Of a stretch of 64,000 nucleotides of DNA, positions 4,785 through 16,734 are shown one piece after another. How positions within the stretch are numbered: position 1 is the first letter of the stretch; each line of letters opens with the position of its first letter. The stretch lies in the NCBI GenBank assembly GCA_016861265.1, contig BOLA01000001.1, positions 934,150 to 998,149 on the forward strand, written 5' to 3'. The notes beneath the pieces were generated by a model. That model was not told the DNA's origin. It was given only the letters and a program-made list of their open reading frames with translations, and ran no database searches. The position numbers and the translations under genes were made by a program. The stretch comes from Patescibacteria group bacterium. GTDB lineage: Bacteria > Patescibacteriota > Dojkabacteria > J137.

Positions 4785-5858
4785 TTACTTAGTCGGTTTC
4801 TCATCCTCCTGTAATGGGTGAAAGTCATGGTGCGATTTTTCAGCAAACTTATCTGAGGCATGAACATACCTAGAAGTTGTTTGTAAGGAAGAGTGACCTA
4901 ATAATCTTTGAATTGCTACGGGACTTGCGCCTTCTTCGGCAATATATGTGGCAAAGCCATGCCTAAGGCTGTGGGCAGATGTTGGAACAATTATTCCAAG
5001 CCTAGTTCTGTATTCTTTAATCTTCATTTGAATGTAATTTTGAGAAAGTCTTATTAGATAGGGATTATTGGTCGCTTTTCGTGTACCCTTGGTTGGAACG
5101 AACATTGCAGGAAACTCATCAGTTCTATCTTTCAAGTATTCTTCTAAGAATTCCTTAGCTCTATGGGTAAGGTATACGAACCTTTGTTTCTTACCTTTAC
5201 CTAGTATATAAATTCTATCGTCTACTACTCTCCCATCTTGAAATTTAATCTGTTCCCGATTCAAATTTACTACCTCAGAAATTCTCATACCTGTGGAAAA
5301 TATCAATTCCAGTATTGCCCTATTTCTTATTTTTACAATTGGATCTTCTTCAAAGTGAGTTGGGCATTCAATTAAATCTACAAGCTCATTAAATTCAGCA
5401 ACCTGCTTTTCTTTCTTCTCAGCCTTAATTAATTTTATTGCAGACGGAGCAATTGGTGATGGTTTATCGAAATCCACCAAAAAAGTTAAATAAGATCTTA
5501 ATGCTGAAAGCATTCTGTTTACACTATTATCTGATAACTGACCCTTGTACATAGCCTTTTTTACCTCCGAAATATTATTTTGTGACTCTTCAATATCGGC
5601 CTGTGTTAACTCCATATTCTCTTTGTATTTATGAAGAATGGGAATATAATTTTGTTCTCGTAGAAATCCTTTATATTCGCTAATTGTCAGCTTATCAATT
5701 TTGCTAAATGGAGTTTCAATGTAGTATAAAAATGCTGAGAAAATTTCTAGGTCTCGACCGTAGTTATCTAATGTTTCCTTTGAATAGTTATTATTCTTAA
5801 GATTAAGTAAATATTCTCTTAGAAAGTCTAATTTGTAAGGGTTAGAAATATCGGTCAT
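4785..5858 (-). CDS. tyrosine site-specific recombinase (XerC/XerD-like integrase family)
   Basis: 357 aa; C-terminal HSLRHGFATYIAEEG…LLGHSSLQTTSRYVH contains the R…HxxR…Y catalytic signature. Confidence 0.8.
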   Translation of the reverse strand: MTDISNPYKLDFLREYLLNLKNNNYSKETLDNYGRDLEIFSAFLYYIETPFSKIDKLTISEYKGFLREQNYIPILHKYKENMELTQADIEESQNNISEVKKAMYKGQLSDNSVNRMLSALRSYLTFLVDFDKPSPIAPSAIKLIKAEKKEKQVAEFNELVDLIECPTHFEEDPIVKIRNRAILELIFSTGMRISEVVNLNREQIKFQDGRVVDDRIYILGKGKKQRFVYLTHRAKEFLEEYLKDRTDEFPAMFVPTKGTRKATNNPYLIRLSQNYIQMKIKEYRTRLGIIVPTSAHSLRHGFATYIAEEGASPVAIQRLLGHSSLQTTSRYVHASDKFAEKSHHDFHPLQEDEKPTK

Positions 5859-5937: not shown

Positions 5938-7485
5938 ATGAAATTACCTACAGCAATAAAAATACCCAAATTTGTAAAATTACTTATTTTAGGTCTGATA
6001 ATAGTTGGCTTTTTAAGTAGATTACTAGGAGCTTTTATAGATCCTGATATGTGGTGGCATATTAAACTAGGCGGAGATATTATAAATGGGCAGTGGGTTA
6101 ATACCTTAACATTTACTTGTACTGACTATATATGGATAAACCATTCATGGTTATCCGATGTTCTAATCTATCAGATTAATACTCTGCTGGGTTTTCAAGG
6201 GTTAGCAATTTTCTTCGCATTAATTTTTTCTGGAGGAATTCTATTCAGCTTACTTTCTTTGAAACTTGTTTTAAAGCAGTACAAAATTAAGAATTCCGTA
6301 CTGAGTACTTTACTATACATAGCCTTCTTTACTTTACTCTTAAGTTCATTTATAGCAATAAGACCGCAGGTCTTTACCTTCCTGTTCTTTAATGCCTTAA
6401 TATTTTTCTTACTTAAATTTTACTATGCAAAATCAGTAAGGTTTATTTCTTTAATTCCATTCTCGTTGTTTTTTATATTGTGGGTAAACTTGCATGGAGG
6501 ATTTGTTATAGGCATTGTATTGACTGGTATATTCATTACTGCAATATTTTTTGAATTCCTTTTTAAACTATTTAACAGGCAGCAGGAAGAAGCCAAGCTA
6601 CTCCTAAGTAAAATTAAGTATTTATTTGTATTTATAATCATTTTTCTTATATCAAGTCTTATTAATCCATTCGGATTAGATTTATGGAAGGAAATATTTA
6701 CACTTGTATTGGGCAGCAATAATGCCAACTTTATTACAGAATGGAAGTCCATAAACATTAAAGATTCTTATGGTTTATTCTATTTTATGTTATTTGTAGG
6801 AACGCTACTTCTGCAGATTGTAAATAAAAGTAGCAACCTATTAAGATTACTGATGGTTGTAGGTCTTGGATTGCTCTCACTTTATTCAATTCGTTATATC
6901 CTTCCTGTAAGCGGAATAGTCCTTCTAGTCCTGTTTATAGAAGCCAATATTCTATTCGAATGGCTTTTAAATAAAATCTTAACAAAGGATAAAGATATTT
7001 TAAGACTTTTAGCTATTCTTAAATATGTATTGGTAATTACAATTGCATTGGTTTCGGCCATGAGCGGTTATATAGGAATCGCATTCTTTACCACTTTGAA
7101 TAATACTAACGAGGCTGCGGATTTGCTCTACCCGACAAAAGCCAAGGATTTTCTAGAAGAAAATAAAGATGAATATTCAAATCTAAGATTCTACAACACT
7201 TATGTGTGGGGCGGATATCTTGAATATACCCTCCCGGATTACAAATGGATAATAGATGGAAGAATGCCTGAATGGCACTGCAAGGGTATGGTTAGAAGCA
7301 GTATTATGCTGGATTACATCGAGGTAGAAGATCTAGGCTCAAACTGGAATTTGGTCTTAGAGAAACAGAATATTAGTGGCTTGATTATAAAAACAAATAG
7401 TATTTTGTATAATGTTATTAATACAAGCAGCAACTGGAATAAAGTATACACCGATGAAACTGCAACAATATTTATTAGAAATTAA
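5938..7485 (+). CDS. polytopic membrane protein, possible GT-C-type glycosyltransferase
   Basis: 515 aa, >10 TM helices; acidic DPD in first predicted external loop; family assignment is an inference. Confidence 0.4.
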   Translation: MKLPTAIKIPKFVKLLILGLIIVGFLSRLLGAFIDPDMWWHIKLGGDIINGQWVNTLTFTCTDYIWINHSWLSDVLIYQINTLLGFQGLAIFFALIFSGGILFSLLSLKLVLKQYKIKNSVLSTLLYIAFFTLLLSSFIAIRPQVFTFLFFNALIFFLLKFYYAKSVRFISLIPFSLFFILWVNLHGGFVIGIVLTGIFITAIFFEFLFKLFNRQQEEAKLLLSKIKYLFVFIIIFLISSLINPFGLDLWKEIFTLVLGSNNANFITEWKSINIKDSYGLFYFMLFVGTLLLQIVNKSSNLLRLLMVVGLGLLSLYSIRYILPVSGIVLLVLFIEANILFEWLLNKILTKDKDILRLLAILKYVLVITIALVSAMSGYIGIAFFTTLNNTNEAADLLYPTKAKDFLEENKDEYSNLRFYNTYVWGGYLEYTLPDYKWIIDGRMPEWHCKGMVRSSIMLDYIEVEDLGSNWNLVLEKQNISGLIIKTNSILYNVINTSSNWNKVYTDETATIFIRN

Positions 7486-7495
7486 TGGAGCTCAC

Positions 7496-8839
7496 ATGTT
7501 GAACACACAGTTAAAAACAATATTAGATTTTGAATATAATAGGCAACATAATACGCTAGACTTGATTGCTTCCGAAAACTATACATCCAAAGCGGTAAGG
7601 GAAGCGGTAGGCTCGATATTTATGCACAAATACTCAGAAGGATATCCTGGAGCGCGTTATTACGAAGGTAATGAATATATTGATCAGCTTGAGATATTGG
7701 CAATAAATCTTGTTAAAAAAGTGTTTGAGTTACCACAAGATTGGGGAGCAAATGTACAGCCTCTAGCTGGTTCAAATGCAAATCTAGCTGTTTACAATGC
7801 AATTCTTAACCCTGGAGATAAAATTTTAAGTATGTATTTACCAGATGGAGGGCACTTGAGTCACGGTTGGAGCTACGGAACAAAGGAGGAAAAAGCCAAT
7901 GAGGATGTGAATTCTCCACTATATAGAGGCGGAAGCCGAAAAGTAAATATTGTATCAAAGTTCTTTAATGTTGTTCAGTATAAGACTGATCCCTCAACTT
8001 TTCTAATTGATTACGATAAACTTGAGCAGCTTGCCCTACAGGAGAAACCCAAGTTAATTATTACGGGTGGAACAGCTTATGTAAGGAATATTGATTACAA
8101 AAGGGTTGCTGAGATAGCAAAAAAGGTAGGTGCATATTACTTGGCAGACGTAGCGCATGAGGCAGGTTTAATTGCGGGCAAGGTTTTAGAAAGTCCAATC
8201 GGTATTGCTCATGCAGTTACCTTTACAACACATAAAACACTAAGAGGACCAAAGGGTGCAGTAATTTGTGCTAATCAAGGCATTATTGAGAAAATAAACA
8301 AATCTATTATGCCTGGACTTCAAGGTGGTCCACATAATGGAACGATTGCTGGTATTACGCAATGTTTATTCGAAGCAGATACCGAAGAATTTAGACAATA
8401 CTCGGCTCAAATTTTGGTTAATGCGAAAGTATTAGCTCAGGAGCTGACAGCAAATGGCTTTAATCTTATTACAGGCGGCACCGATAAGCATGCTATCTTA
8501 ATAGATTTAACAAATAAGAGTATTGGGGGAAAATTTGCCTCAATAGCCCTTAATGCAGCCGGGATAGTAACAAATATGAATACTATTCCTTACGAAACTA
8601 AATCCCCAATAAATCCTTCGGGACTTAGACTGGGCACACCATCAGTAACAACAAGAGGCTTTAAAGAAGAACAAATGAAACTAGTTGCAGAGTATATAAA
8701 TAAGGTAATTGATATAGCAAGTGAAGTAGATAATTCAAGTGTAGAGGCCTTTAGGGAATTGGTAAGTTCGAATTCACAAATAAAAGCCATTAAACAAAAG
8801 ATAATGGACTTGTGTACTCAGTTCCCATTGGGTGAATAA
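7496..8839 (+). CDS. glyA: serine hydroxymethyltransferase
   Basis: SENYTS…, THKTLRGPKG PLP-lysine motif; ATG at 7496 with upstream GGAG; the ORF track's earlier start overlaps the previous gene. Confidence 0.9.
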   Translation: MLNTQLKTILDFEYNRQHNTLDLIASENYTSKAVREAVGSIFMHKYSEGYPGARYYEGNEYIDQLEILAINLVKKVFELPQDWGANVQPLAGSNANLAVYNAILNPGDKILSMYLPDGGHLSHGWSYGTKEEKANEDVNSPLYRGGSRKVNIVSKFFNVVQYKTDPSTFLIDYDKLEQLALQEKPKLIITGGTAYVRNIDYKRVAEIAKKVGAYYLADVAHEAGLIAGKVLESPIGIAHAVTFTTHKTLRGPKGAVICANQGIIEKINKSIMPGLQGGPHNGTIAGITQCLFEADTEEFRQYSAQILVNAKVLAQELTANGFNLITGGTDKHAILIDLTNKSIGGKFASIALNAAGIVTNMNTIPYETKSPINPSGLRLGTPSVTTRGFKEEQMKLVAEYINKVIDIASEVDNSSVEAFRELVSSNSQIKAIKQKIMDLCTQFPLGE

Positions 8840-8901: not shown

Positions 8902-9609
8902 ATGAAGTTAACATCACTTTCTATAATATTGCCTTGCTACAACGAAGAAGAAAATGTAGAGAAAGTAATCAGGGCAGCTGATGCCGTTTGTCAAAAGGTG
9001 GCCGAAGATTACGAAATCCTAATTATAAACGACGGTAGTAAGGACCGAACTGAAGAAATTGCCAGTGGATTAACAGGTGAATTTCCTAAATTGGTTGTTA
9101 TAACTCAGGCGAATAAAGGATATGGGGGAGCAATTAAGAAAGGGTTTGAAAGCGCTTCAAAAGACTGGGTCTTTTTTACAGATTCAGATTTGCAATTTGA
9201 CTTGAACGAATTAGAATCTTTTATACCCTACTCCAGTGAATATAATTTTATATTTGGTTATAGAATAAAAAGAGCCGATAAATTTCATAGAATTTTAATA
9301 GCTAAAATGCTTAAGGTTTGGAATCGAATTCTACTAGGATTCCCATTGTATATTAAGGACATAGACTGTGCCTTTAAACTAATGAAAAGAGAAGACTTCT
9401 TGAGCATTTTTCCATTAGTTGTAGATGGAGGTCTTATAAACACAGAATTCATTTTGAAGATTCATAGAAAGGGTTATAAGATTAAACAAATCGGGGTTCA
9501 TCATTATCCGAGAGTTGCCGGTAATCCTACTGGATCTAACGTAGGCGTAATTATGAAAGCGGTAAGGGAGACTTTTAAACTTCGAAAAATGCTTGCTTCT
9601 CAAAAATAA
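8902..9609 (+). CDS. GT2-family polyprenol-phosphate glycosyltransferase (DPM-synthase/GtrB/CsbB-like)
   Basis: 235 aa; LSIILPCYNEE…INDGSKD…TDSD motifs of GT-A fold GT2. Confidence 0.8.
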   Translation: MKLTSLSIILPCYNEEENVEKVIRAADAVCQKVAEDYEILIINDGSKDRTEEIASGLTGEFPKLVVITQANKGYGGAIKKGFESASKDWVFFTDSDLQFDLNELESFIPYSSEYNFIFGYRIKRADKFHRILIAKMLKVWNRILLGFPLYIKDIDCAFKLMKREDFLSIFPLVVDGGLINTEFILKIHRKGYKIKQIGVHHYPRVAGNPTGSNVGVIMKAVRETFKLRKMLASQK

Positions 9610-9741: not shown

Positions 9742-10356
9742 ATGATAAATATAATCTCAAAACTTAATATTTTTGTTGGTGTACTGTTGATAACAATAAC
9801 TCCGACATACTTCTATGTTTCGGCTCAACTGCAGCCTACTATTATTACGTCTAATTCATTGCCAGTAACTCAAACAGAAAGGGAAAGCAATATTCTAGAC
9901 GGTAATTTAGGTATTAGGGGTAATCTTGGCGGTGCTAATACGCTTAAGGCTATTAAGGTAACTGGAGATGGGCATGTAAAAATTGAATCGATCGGTATCG
10001 ATGCCAAAATTTACGAGGGTGCAGATTCCTCGGCTCTTGAGAAAGGGATTTGGAGAATGCCTGAGCATGGTACTCCAGACAATCAAGTTAGTGATCAACC
10101 TGTGGTATTGGCAGGACATAGATGGGGGCAAAATGACTTTACTTATGAGTACAGATCTAAGAACCTATTCTTAAATCTTCCTAGTTTAAGTAGAGGTGAT
10201 GTAATTGAAGTTACTTGGAATGGAGTTACTTATAAGTATGCAGTTACAGATGTTCAAAAGAACAATTATGTAGAAAAGTTGTCCGACTTGATCCTTATTA
10301 CTTGTGTTGATTACGTGTCAACAACTAGATACTTTGTATACGCTGAAAGAATCTAA
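9742..10356 (+). CDS. sortase-family transpeptidase
   Basis: 204 aa; N-terminal TM anchor; catalytic His in VVLAGHRWG, Cys in LILITCVDY (TLXTC), Arg near the C-terminus. Confidence 0.75.
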   Translation: MINIISKLNIFVGVLLITITPTYFYVSAQLQPTIITSNSLPVTQTERESNILDGNLGIRGNLGGANTLKAIKVTGDGHVKIESIGIDAKIYEGADSSALEKGIWRMPEHGTPDNQVSDQPVVLAGHRWGQNDFTYEYRSKNLFLNLPSLSRGDVIEVTWNGVTYKYAVTDVQKNNYVEKLSDLILITCVDYVSTTRYFVYAERI

Positions 10357-10421
10357 TAGATATTGACTTTTTTATATACTCAAGATATAATAAATATATA
10401 ACTTTTAATATAACTATATAT

Positions 10422-10712
10422 ATGAAGAAATTGCTAAGTGTTTTAACACTAACAGTTATAGCATTTTCAAGTGTTAGTCCTTTAGTATTAAAGGCTGATG
10501 CTGGTGCACAATCTTGTGTTCCTGGAACTGGAGTTAACGGAGTGGCTTGTACACCTTGTTACCCTGGACCTTATAACATTTGTGCACCTCATACCGGAAT
10601 CATTTTCAATGATTCAAATATTAACGAAGGAGCTGTATTTTTAAGTGCAGCAGCAGTAGTTGCTGGAGCAGCATTCGTTATTAACGGTAAGAATTTGAAG
10701 AAGAATGCTTAA
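10422..10712 (+). CDS. small Cys-rich secreted protein with C-terminal hydrophobic segment and basic tail (candidate sortase substrate lacking LPXTG)
   Basis: 96 aa; signal peptide; 6 Cys; C-terminal …NINEGAVFLSAAAVVAGAAFVINGKNLKKNA resembles a sorting-signal architecture. Confidence 0.55.
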   Translation: MKKLLSVLTLTVIAFSSVSPLVLKADAGAQSCVPGTGVNGVACTPCYPGPYNICAPHTGIIFNDSNINEGAVFLSAAAVVAGAAFVINGKNLKKNA

Positions 10713-10785: not shown

Positions 10786-10822
10786 TTTTTTGACACTGGA
10801 AAATGTTGACAATATAACGAAA
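10786..10822 (+). promoter_or_regulatory. sigma70-like promoter (TTGACA-17nt-TATAAC)
   Basis: Seen in sequence; lies in the AT-rich stretch between the Cys-rich protein gene and the GC-rich islet. Confidence 0.35.
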
Positions 10823-11125
10823 GAGGTATATACTGGATATATATTAATATTGATTGAGTGGGCTAACCCATTAATGAGTATTAATATACTCGATCTTTGA
10901 CAACTGTATTTTACAGTTGTAGAAAATTCTTAATTAATTGTATGGCGCAAGTCTGCAATCTTTAGGAAGATTCTCTCAACTATTGCTTTAATAGTCCAAG
11001 TACTCGCTATGGGTAAATAGTTAATAAGGTTAGCTGTTTACCCGTAGTGGAGTACATCCTTAAGGGTACTCGACGCGGTAGGGCATTTGCCCGACAAATC
11101 TAGTTCGACTCTATGGAGGACAGTC

Positions 11126-12220
11126 ATGTTCAACAACAATCGTACGGCTCGTATCGTGATGCTGCTGGTTCTCGTAATCGGCAGTGTCTTCACCAGTGTG
11201 ATGAGCGTCTTCGCGCAGGATGTTGCTCCGGTTTACCCGGTCAACGACCCCGCGAAGTGCGACTTCACGTTCGCGTACAACGGCAGCGGCGGCTGGAATG
11301 TCCAGCGCTACCTTCAGGACAACGGCGATGGCATCGTTCTCGTTACGACGCAAGAAGGTTGGGGGGAAGTGACTTCGGACACTCCCTTCACCGTCTTCGT
11401 CGGCACGTGGGAAGACGCTTCGCAGTCTGTCGTGAATCAGGGCGCAGGCGTTCTCGCAGTGGCTGAAGAGAACCGTTTCGCGTATCGCTTCGGCGAGGAT
11501 GCCAAGCTGGCAGTCGGTCAGGCGCTCGTTATGGTGGCAAACTGCACGCAAGGCGTGGCAGTCGATGCCCCGGCAGCGTTCCCGCCCAACGACGCGGTTT
11601 GCGATCCCACGTTCTGGCGCGAAGGTTCGGACAATCTCGGACGCAAGTTCGTTGACGGCTCTCGCTTGCTGCATTTCGCGGCGGGCGAAGTTGACGACGC
11701 GGCTGTTGGTTCGAACGTCCCGTTCCTCGTATTTCGCGGCATGATCGATGGCACGGGCAACCTCGGCTCTCCGGTTCTGGAATACAGCTACTCCCCCGAC
11801 GGCACGACCTTCAAGTACGTGATCTCGGCGGCGAATAAGCTGGCGCAGAACGAAGGACTGATGGTCGTCTGGCCCTGCCTCAGCGGCGCTGAACACGACG
11901 GGTTTATGACCCACATCACCACCGTCCCGAATGTGGACTGGTGCGGCGCTCACGTAATGGCGGCGGGTTCGACTGAAACCGTCCCTGCCAACTGCGTGGT
12001 CTCCGGCGATGTCAAGGTCAACGGCACGGCGCTGTACGACAACGTGGAAGACACGGGGTTGGTGGTTGCCATTGGTAGCAACCCGGTTGAAATCTACGCT
12101 GAGTGGGGCGCGAGCATTTGGCCCGCGGGCACTGTCCCGCAGACCGCCCACGATGCGTTGGTTCTGACCGGCTGCGCCGATGCGCTCGGTTGCCGCGTTG
12201 TTACGGTGAGTAACCAGTAG
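11126..12220 (+). CDS. secreted hypothetical protein on a ~60% GC islet
   Basis: Start ATG 11126 preceded by GGAGGACAGTC; signal peptide …SVFAQD; composition ~2x the background GC; full-length antisense ORF (11111..12241) is a GC artefact. Confidence 0.6.
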   Translation: MFNNNRTARIVMLLVLVIGSVFTSVMSVFAQDVAPVYPVNDPAKCDFTFAYNGSGGWNVQRYLQDNGDGIVLVTTQEGWGEVTSDTPFTVFVGTWEDASQSVVNQGAGVLAVAEENRFAYRFGEDAKLAVGQALVMVANCTQGVAVDAPAAFPPNDAVCDPTFWREGSDNLGRKFVDGSRLLHFAAGEVDDAAVGSNVPFLVFRGMIDGTGNLGSPVLEYSYSPDGTTFKYVISAANKLAQNEGLMVVWPCLSGAEHDGFMTHITTVPNVDWCGAHVMAAGSTETVPANCVVSGDVKVNGTALYDNVEDTGLVVAIGSNPVEIYAEWGASIWPAGTVPQTAHDALVLTGCADALGCRVVTVSNQ

Positions 12221-12264
12221 CAGCGATCCGAACCTGACCAAAGCAATAGGCGAGAAAAGAGTAA

Positions 12265-12289
12265 TCCGGACACCCTTGTGGTGTCCGGA
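12265..12289 (+). terminator. hairpin TCCGGACAC-loop-GTGTCCGGA downstream of the islet gene
   Basis: Seen in sequence. Confidence 0.4.
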
Positions 12290-12350
12290 CTCGCTTTAAG
12301 TAGATTTCTAAAAGTCTTTTTAAAGTGAGTTAAATTATTTAAAAAACACT

Positions 12351-12626
12351 ATGGAAACTATCAAGATAAGTCTTAGCGAAACAGGTCTAAGAGTAATTGC
12401 TATAGTAGCTGTTTGTGCATCCATAATAGCTTCCACAGTGCTTTTTGTTAATTCAAGAAGTGCTGATAGAAAAGCGGAAATTATTGCAGATTGTTTTAAT
12501 GTAGCTTCGTATAGAGCAACAAACTCTGAGAATAAATCAGAAGTTAATGAACCTGTACTAAGATTCTTTAAAACATGTATGGATATAAATGGTTACGGAA
12601 GTAACTACACATTCTTAAATGAATAA
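12351..12626 (+). CDS. small membrane protein, hypothetical
   Basis: 91 aa, one TM helix; followed by a strong terminator. Confidence 0.45.
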   Translation: METIKISLSETGLRVIAIVAVCASIIASTVLFVNSRSADRKAEIIADCFNVASYRATNSENKSEVNEPVLRFFKTCMDINGYGSNYTFLNE

Positions 12627-12649
12627 GAGTTGATTTTTGATCAAAGGTT

Positions 12650-12673
12650 ACCCCGCTCCAGCGGGGTTTTTTA
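12650..12673 (+). terminator. Rho-independent terminator (ACCCCGC-TCCA-GCGGGGT + TTTTTT)
   Basis: Seen in sequence. Confidence 0.75.
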
Positions 12674-12876: not shown

Positions 12877-15800
12877 ATGTTAAAGATGAAAAAGAAATCA
12901 CCTTTATTCAAATTGATAAATCCTATTTGGAGTCGTAAATTTATAATTATCCTCTTTGTTCTATGGATTCTTATTTGCATAGCAAATTTTAGCCCGGACA
13001 CATTTTTAACCGGCTGGGATAATCTTCACCCTGAGTTTAACTACTCAATGAATTTAAAGAGGCTACTAACAAGTTCCTGGGCTGAGTATCAAGGTCTAGG
13101 CGCACCCGGTGCCCACTCACATGCTGCAGAAATTCCTAGAATGTTTATAGTGGGTATTTTGAACTTAATTTTTGAAACTAATCTAGTTAGGTACATTTTT
13201 ACCTTTATAACTCTGATTATTGGAGTAATAGGTATTTATTATCTGGTCAACAATATCTTCTTAAAAAGAAAAGAAAAGAAATTAAGAGAGTTTTCGGCAT
13301 TTGCAGCAGCACTTTTTTACATGCTTAATGTGGGTACTGTTCAGCACTTTCAAGCACCCTTTGAAATGTTCAATGTTCAATATGCATTACTGCCCTGGCT
13401 TATAGTACTTGCAATTAAATTTCTAGAGACAAAAAAATACAAATATTTACTATATTTTTCTGTAGTGACTTTTTTTGCTGCACCAATGGCTTATGCAGTT
13501 ATGCTATGGATTGCCTATTTTGGAGGTCTCACAATATTCTTGCTTCTAAACCTTGTATTTCAACGAAAAAAGGATTTAATAAAACCAAGTATTTTTCTTT
13601 TATCCGTCACTATTCTAGTAAATCTATTCTGGTTAGTACCAAACTTATATTTTGTATTCAATCATAGCAATTACGTACCAACTGCAAAAACGAATCTTAT
13701 TTTTTCAGAAGAAGCGTTTTTAACGAATCAGAAATATGGAAACCTGGTAGATATTTTCTTGAACAAGGGGTTCTTGTTTGACTGGCAAATTAGAAATCCA
13801 AATTACACTTTTGAACCTATTATGGGTAAATGGGATAGTCACATTGATAATCCGATTGTATTATCAATAGCCTTACTAAGCTTTGCACTTATTGTTGTGG
13901 GCATACTCTACTCAATTTATAGAAAACAGAAGTATTTAATTCCATTGATTGGTGTACTTGTATTTGCAGTTATCGTGATTATGGGTACTAATCCACCATT
14001 AGGAGGGGTTTGGGAAGTGTTAGTTGCTAAGATATCGGTGCTGCAAGAAGCAATTAGGTTCCCATTTACCAAATTCTCTATTTTATTTATATTTACTCAA
14101 ACGGCCTTTCTAGGCTTGGGTACCTATTCTGCAGCAAGATTAATTACAAAGAGAATTCACTTTCAATATGGTTCAATTTTTGCATTGCTATTTTTACTTC
14201 TAATATCTGTAGTCTATTCTCTTCCTACATTCCAAGGTAACTTTATTAATAAATCCCTTAGAATTGATATACCAAACGATTATTTTGAATTATTTGATTA
14301 TTTTAAAGATCAGAATAAGGCAGAAAGAATTGCTAACTTTCCTGTAAATACTCTTTTCGGGTGGTTTTATACCGATTGGGGGTATCAAGGATCGGGGTTT
14401 CTTTGGTATGGAATAGAACAGCCAATCTTAGATAGAGATTTTGATAGATGGTACACAACATTAGAAGATTATTACGACAGCGTAAGTCAAGCTGTATATA
14501 CAAACGATGCAAATTCATTAAAAGATGTTCTTAAAAAGTATGCAATTGATTGGATAATAATTGATGAACATGTTGTATCTTCCAGCGAAGATAACAACTA
14601 TTCTTTAAATCCTGATCTCGCATCGTCAGAAATGGCCTATAAGGAAACAAAGGCTTTGCTTGAAAAAATTCCTGGAGTCGAGCAAAAAGCGGTGTTTGGA
14701 AAAATTTATGTCTATAAAATATCGGGCCTTGATACAGATAATTCTTATGTAGATGTTCTAAATAACGATGCAGAAGGTCAGCCAATAGAAAGTAAGAATG
14801 CTTTTATCGAGGATAATTTTGGAAGAAAAAGTGAGGAAACCTACTTTGAGAAAATCTCAAACGATAATGTTAATTATATAAATAATGTATATACGCTTAG
14901 CAACGAACCAGGTAACTTACATCTTCCTCAAATTTATGATTCCGAGAAGAGTATTCCAGTAAGAATTGCAGCTCGAAAGAACAGCTCTTCCGTTAATATT
15001 AGACTAACCTATCAGATTCCTACAATATACGTAAATGACCAAAGCACTGTAAATGTAACAAAAGTAAGAAACCTTAATTTCGATATTGCAAATCAGTCTT
15101 CCAATTATTACCTAGATATTAATAATCAACAGTTACTCCTTGAGGATATAGATAATGCGTGGAAGATATACGGTTTTATGGATGTAGCATTAGATAAGGA
15201 TTTAGTAGCAAACTTATATAATATTGATGATGGAGAAAACATTACATCAAGACTAGATCTGGAAAAAGCACAAATTAATAATTGTTCTGGTTCTGCCATA
15301 GCTAAAAGCTCTTCAGTTTCTTTTGTTAATGATGTTCTTAACTTTAGAAGCACTGGTGAAAACATTTGTGTCGAATTTAAAATTAGCACCTTGAATACTG
15401 TTAATAGTTTGTATCGACTTGAGATGGAATATAAAAGTAATCAGGGAGTTATCGGGGACGCATGCATAAAATTTGACGCAGGTTGTGTTAATACAAAAGA
15501 ATTTAGGAGCGATTATCTGCCTACTTTCTGGTATAAATTTAATACTTTTGCAAAAGATGAAGACTCCAATAATTTTAGTACTGCGTTAGTATTCAATAAC
15601 TCATCTCCAGAAAATACTGCATCCATAGGTTATAGAAACGTAAAATTATATAGGTACGAATTGGATGATCAGGTGGTAATAAAGCTAGAAGATATCAAGA
15701 ACGATCTACGTTTTGCTAATACCGATATACCTATAAAACCGATAAATACCAAACTTACCTTCAAATTTATTCTACCGACTAGTAAAATTTATAATTTTGA

Positions 15801-16734
15801 TTACACTGCTCTTCAGCAAATTTTATCTTTAACGGCAAAGGATTGTAAACCATACGTAGATTCAATAGAGCTTGATAGAAGTCTTGATTCTGTAAATAGA
15901 CAAATTGATTTTAAATCTATAGATGGATTTAACTGTGATAATCTAAATTTGTACAATATTAATCTAAAGAATGGTTTCTTAATTAATATTGAAGGGGAAA
16001 ACAAGTCAGGTCCAGGATTAGTGTTAAATGTAAGCGACTTTTACTATAAGAAGGTATATTACACGAATAGACTTCCTCAGAATTCTAATTTTAGCGAATA
16101 TTTAACTATCCCTAATTTAATTGATTCCGCTTCTAATGGTTTGAATATTTTTATTAATAATCAATCAGTTGGTAACAAAGAAACTATAAACTCCATTAAG
16201 AATATAACTGTAAGCCCAATAATTTATAGTTGGCTTTCAGGCATAGAATATCAGTCTGCTCCCCTATTTAGCTCAGATAATAGCGTGATTAGTGTAGATA
16301 AACTTACTACGACAAATTACAAAATTGAGTTGAATCCATCAAGTTCTGATAGAATACTTAAATTCAATCAGAGCTACGAAGCTAACTGGCTAGCCTACGA
16401 CGATAAAGGTAATCTGCTTAATCGGCTAGGAACAGTAAATAGTAATACAGAAAAAGCGGAATGGAACAACTATTGGATTCTTCCGGCTGGAGTGTCGGGA
16501 GTCTTTATTGAATATAGAACTGAGACTTACCAATATTTAGCGTACGTGATAGTCGCATTCTTATTTGTGGTTCTTACCGTTGCATCTGCATGGCAAAGTA
16601 ATAGGTATATTATTTTTGTTACCCAAATTAAAAAAGCATACAAGAAACAAAGAAGAAAACACATGCTTTTTGTCGAAAGAAATATTGAGCCGAAACTAGA
16701 CCGATTCAAGAAGTTTAATAAGAAAGATCTCTAA
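12877..16734 (+). CDS. giant (1285 aa) membrane protein: N-terminal ~12-TM GT-C/YfhO-like domain, large extracytoplasmic domain, C-terminal TM anchor
   Basis: Uninterrupted ORF in an AT-rich genome; topology inferred from hydrophobic segments; family assignment is an inference. Confidence 0.6.
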   Translation: MLKMKKKSPLFKLINPIWSRKFIIILFVLWILICIANFSPDTFLTGWDNLHPEFNYSMNLKRLLTSSWAEYQGLGAPGAHSHAAEIPRMFIVGILNLIFETNLVRYIFTFITLIIGVIGIYYLVNNIFLKRKEKKLREFSAFAAALFYMLNVGTVQHFQAPFEMFNVQYALLPWLIVLAIKFLETKKYKYLLYFSVVTFFAAPMAYAVMLWIAYFGGLTIFLLLNLVFQRKKDLIKPSIFLLSVTILVNLFWLVPNLYFVFNHSNYVPTAKTNLIFSEEAFLTNQKYGNLVDIFLNKGFLFDWQIRNPNYTFEPIMGKWDSHIDNPIVLSIALLSFALIVVGILYSIYRKQKYLIPLIGVLVFAVIVIMGTNPPLGGVWEVLVAKISVLQEAIRFPFTKFSILFIFTQTAFLGLGTYSAARLITKRIHFQYGSIFALLFLLLISVVYSLPTFQGNFINKSLRIDIPNDYFELFDYFKDQNKAERIANFPVNTLFGWFYTDWGYQGSGFLWYGIEQPILDRDFDRWYTTLEDYYDSVSQAVYTNDANSLKDVLKKYAIDWIIIDEHVVSSSEDNNYSLNPDLASSEMAYKETKALLEKIPGVEQKAVFGKIYVYKISGLDTDNSYVDVLNNDAEGQPIESKNAFIEDNFGRKSEETYFEKISNDNVNYINNVYTLSNEPGNLHLPQIYDSEKSIPVRIAARKNSSSVNIRLTYQIPTIYVNDQSTVNVTKVRNLNFDIANQSSNYYLDINNQQLLLEDIDNAWKIYGFMDVALDKDLVANLYNIDDGENITSRLDLEKAQINNCSGSAIAKSSSVSFVNDVLNFRSTGENICVEFKISTLNTVNSLYRLEMEYKSNQGVIGDACIKFDAGCVNTKEFRSDYLPTFWYKFNTFAKDEDSNNFSTALVFNNSSPENTASIGYRNVKLYRYELDDQVVIKLEDIKNDLRFANTDIPIKPINTKLTFKFILPTSKIYNFDYTALQQILSLTAKDCKPYVDSIELDRSLDSVNRQIDFKSIDGFNCDNLNLYNINLKNGFLINIEGENKSGPGLVLNVSDFYYKKVYYTNRLPQNSNFSEYLTIPNLIDSASNGLNIFINNQSVGNKETINSIKNITVSPIIYSWLSGIEYQSAPLFSSDNSVISVDKLTTTNYKIELNPSSSDRILKFNQSYEANWLAYDDKGNLLNRLGTVNSNTEKAEWNNYWILPAGVSGVFIEYRTETYQYLAYVIVAFLFVVLTVASAWQSNRYIIFVTQIKKAYKKQRRKHMLFVERNIEPKLDRFKKFNKKDL

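Follow-up and report, generated by a model that had tools for sequence, protein, structure and literature searches.

The window analysed here is a stretch of 64,000 nucleotides of contig BOLA01000001.1 (positions 934,150 to 998,149 of the forward strand, GenBank assembly GCA_016861265.1) from an uncultured, ultra-small member of the Dojkabacteria, which belong to the Patescibacteria or candidate phyla radiation (CPR). Its G+C content (GC) is about 33%. The window carries a sortase gene which is followed, after a spacer of 65 nt, by an open reading frame (ORF) for a 96-residue secreted protein. The two genes probably form a dedicated sortase–substrate pair, in which the small protein bears an LPXTG-like sorting signal and its cargo is cleaved and transferred by the enzyme. 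The original prediction, made from the letters of the window alone, had proposed the pairing but had placed the recognition motif at NINEG, next to the membrane helix; the comparison of relatives points to A55-P-H-T-G59 instead. The features of the two genes are the following.

9742..10356, + strand: sortase gene, 204 aa, of an unclassified CPR clade (Pfam PF04203).
9742..9828, + strand: N-terminal membrane anchor of the sortase, about residues 1-29 (hydropathy windows of residues 1-30; helix 2-29 in the AlphaFold2 (AF2) model).
9970..10353, + strand: catalytic domain of the sortase, residues 77-204 (Pfam match and alignment of homologues).
10117-10119, 10303-10305 and 10327-10329, + strand: catalytic codons of His126, Cys188 and Arg196, respectively (read from the sequence).
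10422..10712, + strand: gene of the small sortase partner, a 96-aa precursor (ORF; eight close homologues).
10422..10502, + strand: predicted Sec signal peptide, residues 1-27, ending in LKADA/G (hydrophobic residues 3-25; AF2 helix 2-18).
10503..10595, + strand: predicted mature cargo, residues 28-58, about 31 aa, with the core C-x-PGTG...C-x-P-C-x-PGPY-x-I-C.
10584..10598, + strand: APHTG, the LPXTG-like sortase motif, A55-P56-H57-T58-G59, positions P4 to P1' (conservation in 36 non-identical relatives).
10599..10631, + strand: spacer GIIFNDSNINEG, residues 60-70 ('II' conserved, remainder variable).
10632..10682, + strand: hydrophobic transmembrane segment, residues 71-87 (hydropathy).
10683..10709, + strand: basic cytoplasmic tail NGKNLKKNA (conserved N-G-x-x-L-K at the end of the helix).

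The 204-residue ORF is matched by the Pfam Sortase family PF04203 over residues 79-203 (E 3.3e-16, 59.6 bits for a cutoff of 26.6) and by TIGR01076, with a score (45.6 bits) above the curated cutoff of 39.35. The catalytic triad that had been read from the sequence, consisting of a histidine, the cysteine of an LITC motif and an arginine, is confirmed by an alignment of 14 homologues with identities down to 36%: His126 (within LAGHR), Cys188 (within LILITC) and Arg196 are all invariant, and so are two signatures of the clade, HRWG and KNLFLN. In the AF2 model of the enzyme, the predicted local distance difference test (pLDDT) of the catalytic domain is mostly 60-92 per block of ten residues, with one block at 51. 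The 50 best matches of this model in Foldseek are all sortases (top E 5.7e-11), which identifies the fold as the eight-stranded beta-barrel of a sortase.

The small protein has the predicted length and a signal-peptide-like N-terminus, in which small residues are kept at positions -3 and -1 of the putative cleavage site (ADA in the window protein, or [VN]xA followed by Gln in relatives). It had been credited with six cysteines; it contains four, at positions 32, 43, 46 and 54. Across the partner family, C32, G35, T36, C43, Y51, I53 and C54 show little or no variation. At the other end of the protein, a hydrophobic 17-mer followed by a tail of net positive charge (+1 to +6) is present in 36/36 relatives, Gly82 in the helix is invariant across three family alignments, and the tail itself is conserved at N88 (19/21 sequences), G89 (18/21), L92 (16/21) and K93 (18/21). 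The AF2 model of the small protein, built from 25 sequences, shows a beta region at residues 31-55 (pLDDT about 70), a flexible, low-confidence segment at residues 56-68 that holds the motif, and a helix at residues 69-95; the overall values are low (predicted template modelling score 0.28, pLDDT 68). No Pfam or NCBIfam family matches the small protein, for which the window protein and 25 family members were scanned.

The eight closest homologues of the small protein conserve nearly everything, including INEGA, and thus cannot discriminate between candidate motifs. More divergent partners were therefore gathered in three ways: by taking the gene downstream of sortases that are 36-46% identical to that of the window, by scanning species-representative genomes with a sortase profile, and by searching 1.84 billion representative proteins exhaustively with a hidden Markov model (HMM) of the partner. 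The motif counts given below refer to 36 non-identical partners of the Dojkabacteria type, and the column entropies to 21 down-weighted sequences.

The alignment of C-termini across relatives, which the original prediction had called for, recovers the motif [V/I/A]-P-x-T-G. Position P4 is occupied by Val in 13 partners, Ala in 7, Ile in 5 and Pro in 5, and never by Leu. Position P3 is Pro in 30/36, P2 takes ten different residues, P1 is Thr in 32/36 and Leu in the remaining four, and P1' is Gly in 27/36 and Asp, Ser or Ala in the others. The commonest pentapeptides are VPDTG, VPETG and IPDTG; PPKTG and APxTG are also typical. The entropies of the motif columns are 0.82 bits for P56, 0.45 for T58 and 0.86 for G59, compared to 2.62 bits for the free position 57, and the residues just upstream are similarly constant (Y51, 0 bits; I53, 0.28 bits; C54, 0.55 bits). 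As read from these alignments, the family motif is the conservation pattern of LPXTG with a smaller residue at P4.

APHTG directly follows the last cysteine and lies 11 residues upstream of the helix, between the folded part of the protein and the membrane segment; in the family, the spacer from the motif Gly to the helix is 9-16 aa long, with a median of 11. The pattern.P.TG is found a single time in the 15,567 residues of the window's long ORFs, which corresponds to a chance of about 0.001 per stretch of 25 aa. The string NINEG is indeed present at residues 66-70 (10617-10631), directly before the hydrophobic helix, but it is conserved in the closest clade only, and the entropies of its columns (2.6-3.3 bits) are among the highest in the protein. 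Thus, the tripartite C-terminus that had been described stands as far as the helix and the tail KKNA are concerned, and the motif position has to be moved upstream.

The literal pentapeptide L-P-x-T-G is not matched; the A-P-H-T-G of the window belongs to a range of variants already published, which includes VPDTG, IPQTG and FPXTG. In the pneumococcal pilins RrgC, RrgB and RrgA, the sorting signal reads VPDTG, IPQTG and YPRTG, respectively (PMC5640630), and IPXTG and FPXTG signals are found in Streptococcus agalactiae (PMC8225981). The earlier suggestion of an uncharacterised motif unrelated to LPXTG is therefore not retained, since the conserved motif is within the range of known sortases, and judging from its sequence the locus holds no new recognition code.

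The association of the two genes was followed over 35 loci from distinct species-level genomes, found in the sortase-side scan, with 4-10 kb sampled around each locus. An HMM of the C-terminal module separates the partners (E <= 2e-5) from all other ORFs (E >= 0.5). At loci of the Dojkabacteria type, exactly one partner is found downstream of the sortase and on the same strand in 13/13 cases, 11 of which lie within 175 nt. The same arrangement is seen at 11/21 evaluable loci of the Collierbacteria type, with distances of 0-3.4 kb. Conversely, when the small protein was taken as the starting point, a sortase was immediately upstream in 7/7 evaluable look-ups (P0006, P0007, P0008, P0057, P0062, P0072 and P0080; P#### and L### are working labels for proteins and for the loci of relatives, respectively). 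The pair is kept despite differing flanks in L005, L006, L048 and L049. Every evaluable homologue is thus sortase-linked, and the possibility that homologues are never found next to a sortase, named at the outset as an argument against the pairing, does not apply.

In the window itself, the signal-bearing small ORF adjoins a sortase gene, the scanned ORFs include no other sortase, and neither another ORF with a sorting signal nor a canonical LPXTG protein was detected in the 64 kb by regular expression and HMM. The 377-aa product of the GC-rich ORF located downstream was considered as a second substrate and rejected, as it has no C-terminal sorting signal. Two kinds of inserted or substituted genes were observed near the pair in relatives: a HEPN/MNT (nucleotidyltransferase) toxin–antitoxin pair lies upstream, in the place of the glycosyltransferase gene, in L005 (5929-6632) and L006 (1007-1710), and a HicAB cassette lies between the sortase and its partner in L009 (5920-6418), where strand and order are unchanged.

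The class of the sortase was examined with the NCBIfam models. The best class-specific score is that of the class C model NF033745, 45.5 bits, which is below its cutoff of 160; the scores of the class D (33.4 vs 165), SrtD (36.9 vs 140) and class E (17.2 vs 160) models are also below cutoff, and the class A and class B models give no match at E <= 0.1. The nearest solved structures are likewise class C enzymes, namely the pilin sortase Ebp SrtC by profile (E 3e-7) and A. oris SrtC-1 by fold (2xwg, E 5.7e-11, 24-31% identity over about 137 residues). Class C enzymes are characterised by a lid with a DP[W/F/Y] motif that covers the active site, and by a membrane anchor at the C-terminus. The 204-aa sequence contains no DPW, DPF or DPY motif, it ends eight residues past Arg196, and its sole hydrophobic segment is N-terminal, so that there is no C-terminal anchor. 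By these comparisons the clade belongs to no described or curated class, although it appears to work like a sortase.

These features suggest a classical route for the small protein. The 96-aa precursor would be exported by the Sec pathway and lose its signal peptide after Ala27, and the C-terminal helix with the basic tail would keep it in the membrane. The membrane-anchored sortase would then recognise A55-P-H-T-G59 in the flexible linker, 11 residues above the membrane, and Cys188 would attack the T58-G59 bond to give the cargo of about 31 aa as a thioacyl intermediate. This cargo may be passed to an amine acceptor, most likely a peptidoglycan precursor or lipid II, and thereby anchored to the wall, and the fragment G59-A96 would stay in the membrane. 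The window holds a SpoIID-domain gene, which is consistent with the presence of a peptidoglycan wall. Candidate peptides that include the predicted sortase site are YNICAPHTGIIFND and YNICAPHTGIIFNDSNINEGA.

Given its four cysteines, the cargo is possibly disulfide-bonded. In the passages of Meheust et al. that deal with sortases (2019, PMC6744442), CPR genomes are reported to be enriched in disulfide machinery of the MdbA/VKOR type, which acts on sortase substrates in Actinomyces. By analogy, an MdbA/VKOR-like machinery could oxidise Cys-containing secreted substrates such as this one.

The exhaustive search returned 39 clusters, of which 38 are real members of the partner family; P0048, a protein of 1735 aa, is a spurious low-complexity repeat protein and no family member. 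The closest homologous contigs come from metagenome-assembled CPR genomes, some of which are labelled Candidatus Dojkabacteria and a few 'uncultured Saccharibacteria', and more distant members of the sortase clade come from genomes of Collierbacteria (Microgenomates). In most members the predicted cargo has about 12-31 aa, the window protein being at the upper end, and the smallest ones (P0027, P0074 and L024) have 12-14 aa. The Collierbacteria-type partners are longer (76-180 aa), many of them with a Pro/Thr-rich linker, and they end with ICTPVYGxAxTCxEHxVVDTGA, a hydrophobic segment and then VKAKTLKK. In this version T-G is retained, Val replaces Pro and the spacer is reduced to about 4 residues, which supports T-G as the common core and shows that changes at P3 are tolerated in the family.

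Two lineages have much larger partners, of 309 and 317 aa (L010, 5694-6623; L012, 5665-6618), which share only the C-terminal signal with the other members and repeat several times a Cys-rich module, C-x-x-C-T-P...D-x-C...C-P-x-G-T-S...G-C. P0066 (129 aa) has a duplicated core. The cargo is therefore modular and the C-terminal signal fixed, as one would expect if the latter is a sorting domain.

Several observations weigh against the assignment of the small protein as a cleaved sortase substrate. No LPXTG-anchor HMM of Pfam or NCBIfam matches the 25 members at E <= 1, the sole match to a related anchor model being that of EF0750_LPXTG (2 members, E 0.019). Ten of the 36 relatives depart from xPxT[G/A/S/D]. 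Four of them have Leu at P1 (VPDLG, VPVLG twice and VPYLG); these VPxLG members appear closely related, as their partner proteins are very similar. The six others have no Pro at P3: VQETG, IRRTG, GINTG, CANTG, CAPTS and PGPTG, the last with a Pro shifted by one. Asp is at P1' in 4 of the 26 conforming sequences, which is unusual among sortase signals, the V-D-T-G of the Collierbacteria type has no Pro, and the spacer of 9-16 aa between the motif and the helix exceeds that of textbook signals. A cargo of 12-31 aa is also very small for a wall-anchored surface protein. Lastly, residues outside the pentapeptide (Y51, I53, C54, I60, N88 and G89) are equally conserved, so the whole segment could be kept for a reason other than cleavage.

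The last point leads to the main alternative, which we consider unlikely: the small protein would be a permanent type I membrane protein that is never cleaved, an accessory, a regulator or a pseudo-substrate of the sortase, and its likeness to xPxTG would be structural. The spread of conservation beyond the pentapeptide (Y51, I53, C54, I60, I61, G82, N88, G89 and K93) speaks for such a role, and some relatives lack the motif Pro or Thr. In addition, the sortase has no DP[W/F/Y] lid of its own, so that a pseudo-substrate acting in trans is conceivable. On the other hand, the succession of a hydrophobic residue, Pro, a free position, Thr and Gly, and its location between the fold and the helix, are those of a sorting signal. 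The 309- and 317-aa relatives have only the C-terminal module in common with the rest of the family, and AF2 leaves the motif unpacked, in a low-confidence flexible linker. The cleaved substrate hence remains the reading that we prefer.

The proximity of the enzyme to class C sortases raises another question, whether the small protein is polymerised into a pilus-like fibre by way of a Lys side chain or of its N-terminus. Apart from the structural relatives, which polymerise pilins, [V/I]PxTG motifs are typical of pilins, and the predicted mature N-terminus of the window protein is a Gly. Yet residues 28-58 contain no Lys and the family has no conserved Lys column, the N-terminal residue is not conserved (it is mostly Gln, with Asp, Glu or Ser in other members and Gly in the clade of the window only), and no pilin fold is present in a cargo of 12-31 aa. 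The sortase has neither the lid nor the C-terminal anchor of class C and scores far below the cutoff of the class C model (45.5 vs 160). Such a polymer is quite improbable, and the earlier proposal of a small pilin or adhesin finds no support, the predicted mature peptide of about 31 aa being devoid of Lys. Head-to-tail ligation or cyclisation through an N-terminal Gly was also rejected, as the predicted Gly is confined to the clade of the window.

The size of the cargo invites a different thought. In a scenario that we regard as improbable to a similar degree, the sortase would process a mini-peptide with a length of about 12-31 aa and the C-terminus ...Y-G-I-C-x-P-x-T, which would become a covalent tag on the wall or on another molecule, or a cyclic product closed through the Cys four residues upstream or through the N-terminus. 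If this were true, it would be the first natural sortase acting in peptide maturation, and one specific to CPR bacteria.

A still less probable variant is that the peptide matured by the sortase is diffusible, released by hydrolysis or cyclised by an internal or N-terminal nucleophile that resolves the thioacyl intermediate, and serves as a signalling or antimicrobial mini-peptide. Most members do have a cargo of just 12-31 aa, and in most members of the Dojkabacteria type a Cys lies exactly 4 residues before the scissile Thr (C-x-P-x-T). This Cys–Thr geometry resembles that of the staphylococcal autoinducing peptide (AIP), whose 5-residue thiolactone ring is formed by AgrB, a cysteine protease. 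In addition, the small gene seems to have its own strong promoter-like site. However, nearly all members have an even number of Cys, which points to disulfides rather than a free thiol, and two members have no Cys at all. The distance from Cys to Thr is also different in L007, L020, L025, P0076 and the Collierbacteria type, the surroundings showed no genes for an exporter, a receptor or immunity, and no natural sortase cyclase is known.

It is hardly credible that NINEG is a new recognition motif replacing LPXTG: it lies immediately before the helix, the eight closest homologues all share INEGA and one alignment brings the Collierbacteria-type VDTGA near its position, but its columns are highly variable beyond the closest clade (FTSAQ, VNTAV, VSDAM or ISTEV) and APHTG, 11 residues upstream, is conserved family-wide.

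A lipoprotein was considered as well and rejected. The LP_plasma model matches with E 0.014 and 15.8 bits, below its cutoff of 24. There is no lipobox [LVI][ASTVI][GAS]C, as G-A-Q-S precedes the first Cys of the window protein, and the relatives show varied non-lipobox contexts together with conserved sites of the AxA type.

A dedicated sortase–substrate pair can be compared with several known systems. The class C systems, such as Streptococcus pneumoniae SrtC-1/2/3 with RrgB (IPQTG) and RrgC (VPDTG), or A. oris SrtC-1, resemble it by their structures, which are the closest, by the [V/I]-P-x-T-G motif and by the adjacency of the genes. They differ by a lid, a C-terminal anchor, pilin domains and a Lys nucleophile, none of which is found in the pair of the window, and by the size of the cargo, which is several hundred residues in class C pilins compared to about 31 here. 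With sortase A and its LPXTG substrates, the pair shares the triad, the fold, the logic of the tripartite signal and the P4-P1' conservation pattern. The family of the window has Ala, Val or Ile instead of Leu at P4, a spacer of 9-16 aa and additional conserved flanks (YGIC before the motif, II after it and NGK at the end of the helix). Unlike sortase A, which has many substrates, the pairing appears to be one-to-one within the 4-10 kb sampled per locus.

The class D enzyme SrtD, paired with LPxTATN proteins (NCBIfam NF058671), is likewise a specialised sortase located beside a single substrate with a variant motif. It has weak HMM similarity to the enzyme of the window (E 2.7e-9), but the score of 36.9 is below the cutoff of 140, the lineage, the motif and the substrate family are different, and the substrate of the window is a mini-protein. 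Other dedicated sortase–target pairs are YhcS–YhcR of Bacillus subtilis and the 'marine proteobacterial sortase' with its target.

In the corresponding passages, Meheust et al. (2019, PMC6744442) report that sortases are enriched in CPR, more than half of which encode one, and call them 'near ubiquitous in Microgenomates'; sortases are described as common in CPR in PMC7143001 and PMC4736985 too. The first of these studies shares with the present one the observation that CPR genomes encode sortases and, in the passages concerned, MdbA/VKOR-like machinery; its sortase passages name no substrate, motif or gene pairing. In the literature searched, no CPR sortase substrate, sorting motif or pairing is described. 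The locus thus supplies a concrete candidate for a CPR enzyme and its substrate, with the motif [V/I/A]PxTG after YGIC, the HRWG/KNLFLN clade and a profile by which partners can be found. What is new lies in the clade of the enzyme, the family of mini-substrates and the extended signal; the chemistry and the signal logic are classical.

CPR bacteria (Patescibacteria) are thought to live attached to other microbes. If the cargo is truly 12-31 aa long, it would be unusually small for a natural sortase, which would raise the question of the role of so small a covalent decoration on the CPR wall.

The region between and downstream of the two genes has several features of its own. The spacer between them includes the promoter-like site already mentioned, which is weak evidence, as 7 such sites were found in this AT-rich stretch for 6.6 expected:

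10363..10391, + strand: promoter-like TTGACT-17-TATAAT in the 65-nt spacer (11/12 consensus match, about 30 nt ahead of the small gene).

The gene of the small protein is followed by a conserved structured leader (about 10806-10995), which precedes the GC-rich gene. Its elements are a promoter-like site, TTGACA-17-TATACT (10806-10834), and two hairpins, of 21 bp (about 10840-10888) and 9 bp (about 10897-10923). L013 and L001 conserve these elements, and the three sequences together show 5 compensatory pairs. No Rfam family matched the leader; the range searched gave only weak sub-threshold matches, at 12401-12672.

The GC-rich island (10994-12281) is directly downstream, with a length of about 1.3 kb and about 60% GC in a genome of about 33% GC. 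Its ORF (11087-12220, + strand) has a GC of 0.60 and a GC at third codon positions of 0.74, compared to 0.19-0.29 for the latter in the neighbouring genes. The 377-aa product bears a signal peptide and matches no family. Relatives have a GC-elevated gene for a secreted protein in the same slot, between conserved flanks, which is not similar to that of the window by BLASTP. Between the window and L013, the DNA homology ends at 10993 and resumes at 12282. From this pattern, the island looks like a hypervariable replacement cassette.

An inverted repeat of 19-24 nt brackets the GC-rich gene in the window (10971-10989 / 12240-12258) and in relatives (L001, 6492-6515 / 8086-8109; L005, 8848-8866 / 10575-10593; L013, about 5197-5215 / 6793-6812). 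The left arm precedes the start codon by about 100 nt and the right arm is at the stop codon or just past it. The sequences of the arms vary between strains and remain complementary. The repeat could reflect pairing between the 5' and 3' ends of the mRNA, or be the terminal repeats of a cassette. It is followed by a GC hairpin (about 12266-12290 in the window), which also shows compensatory changes.

The wider neighbourhood is of the envelope type, with genes that suggest glycosylation (5938-7485, 8902-9609, 12351-12626 and 12877-16734) and recurs near the pair in L001, L006, L007 and L009. It encodes a glycosyltransferase of family 2 (GT2) that resembles polyprenyl-phosphate sugar transferases, two polytopic membrane proteins of 515 and 1285 aa without a family match, and a membrane protein of 91 aa in which an NEP[IV]L...C motif is conserved. 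The 1285-aa protein has no significant match to a family or in the PDB, its best match being AftD-like (E 0.45). A tyrosine recombinase gene of the Phage_integrase family (4785-5858, - strand) lies upstream of the gene of the 515-aa membrane protein, which is followed by a serine hydroxymethyltransferase (SHMT) gene. The recombinase is syntenic in L001, L005, L010 and L012; it is therefore probably a chromosomal gene of the Xer type rather than the integrase of a mobile element.

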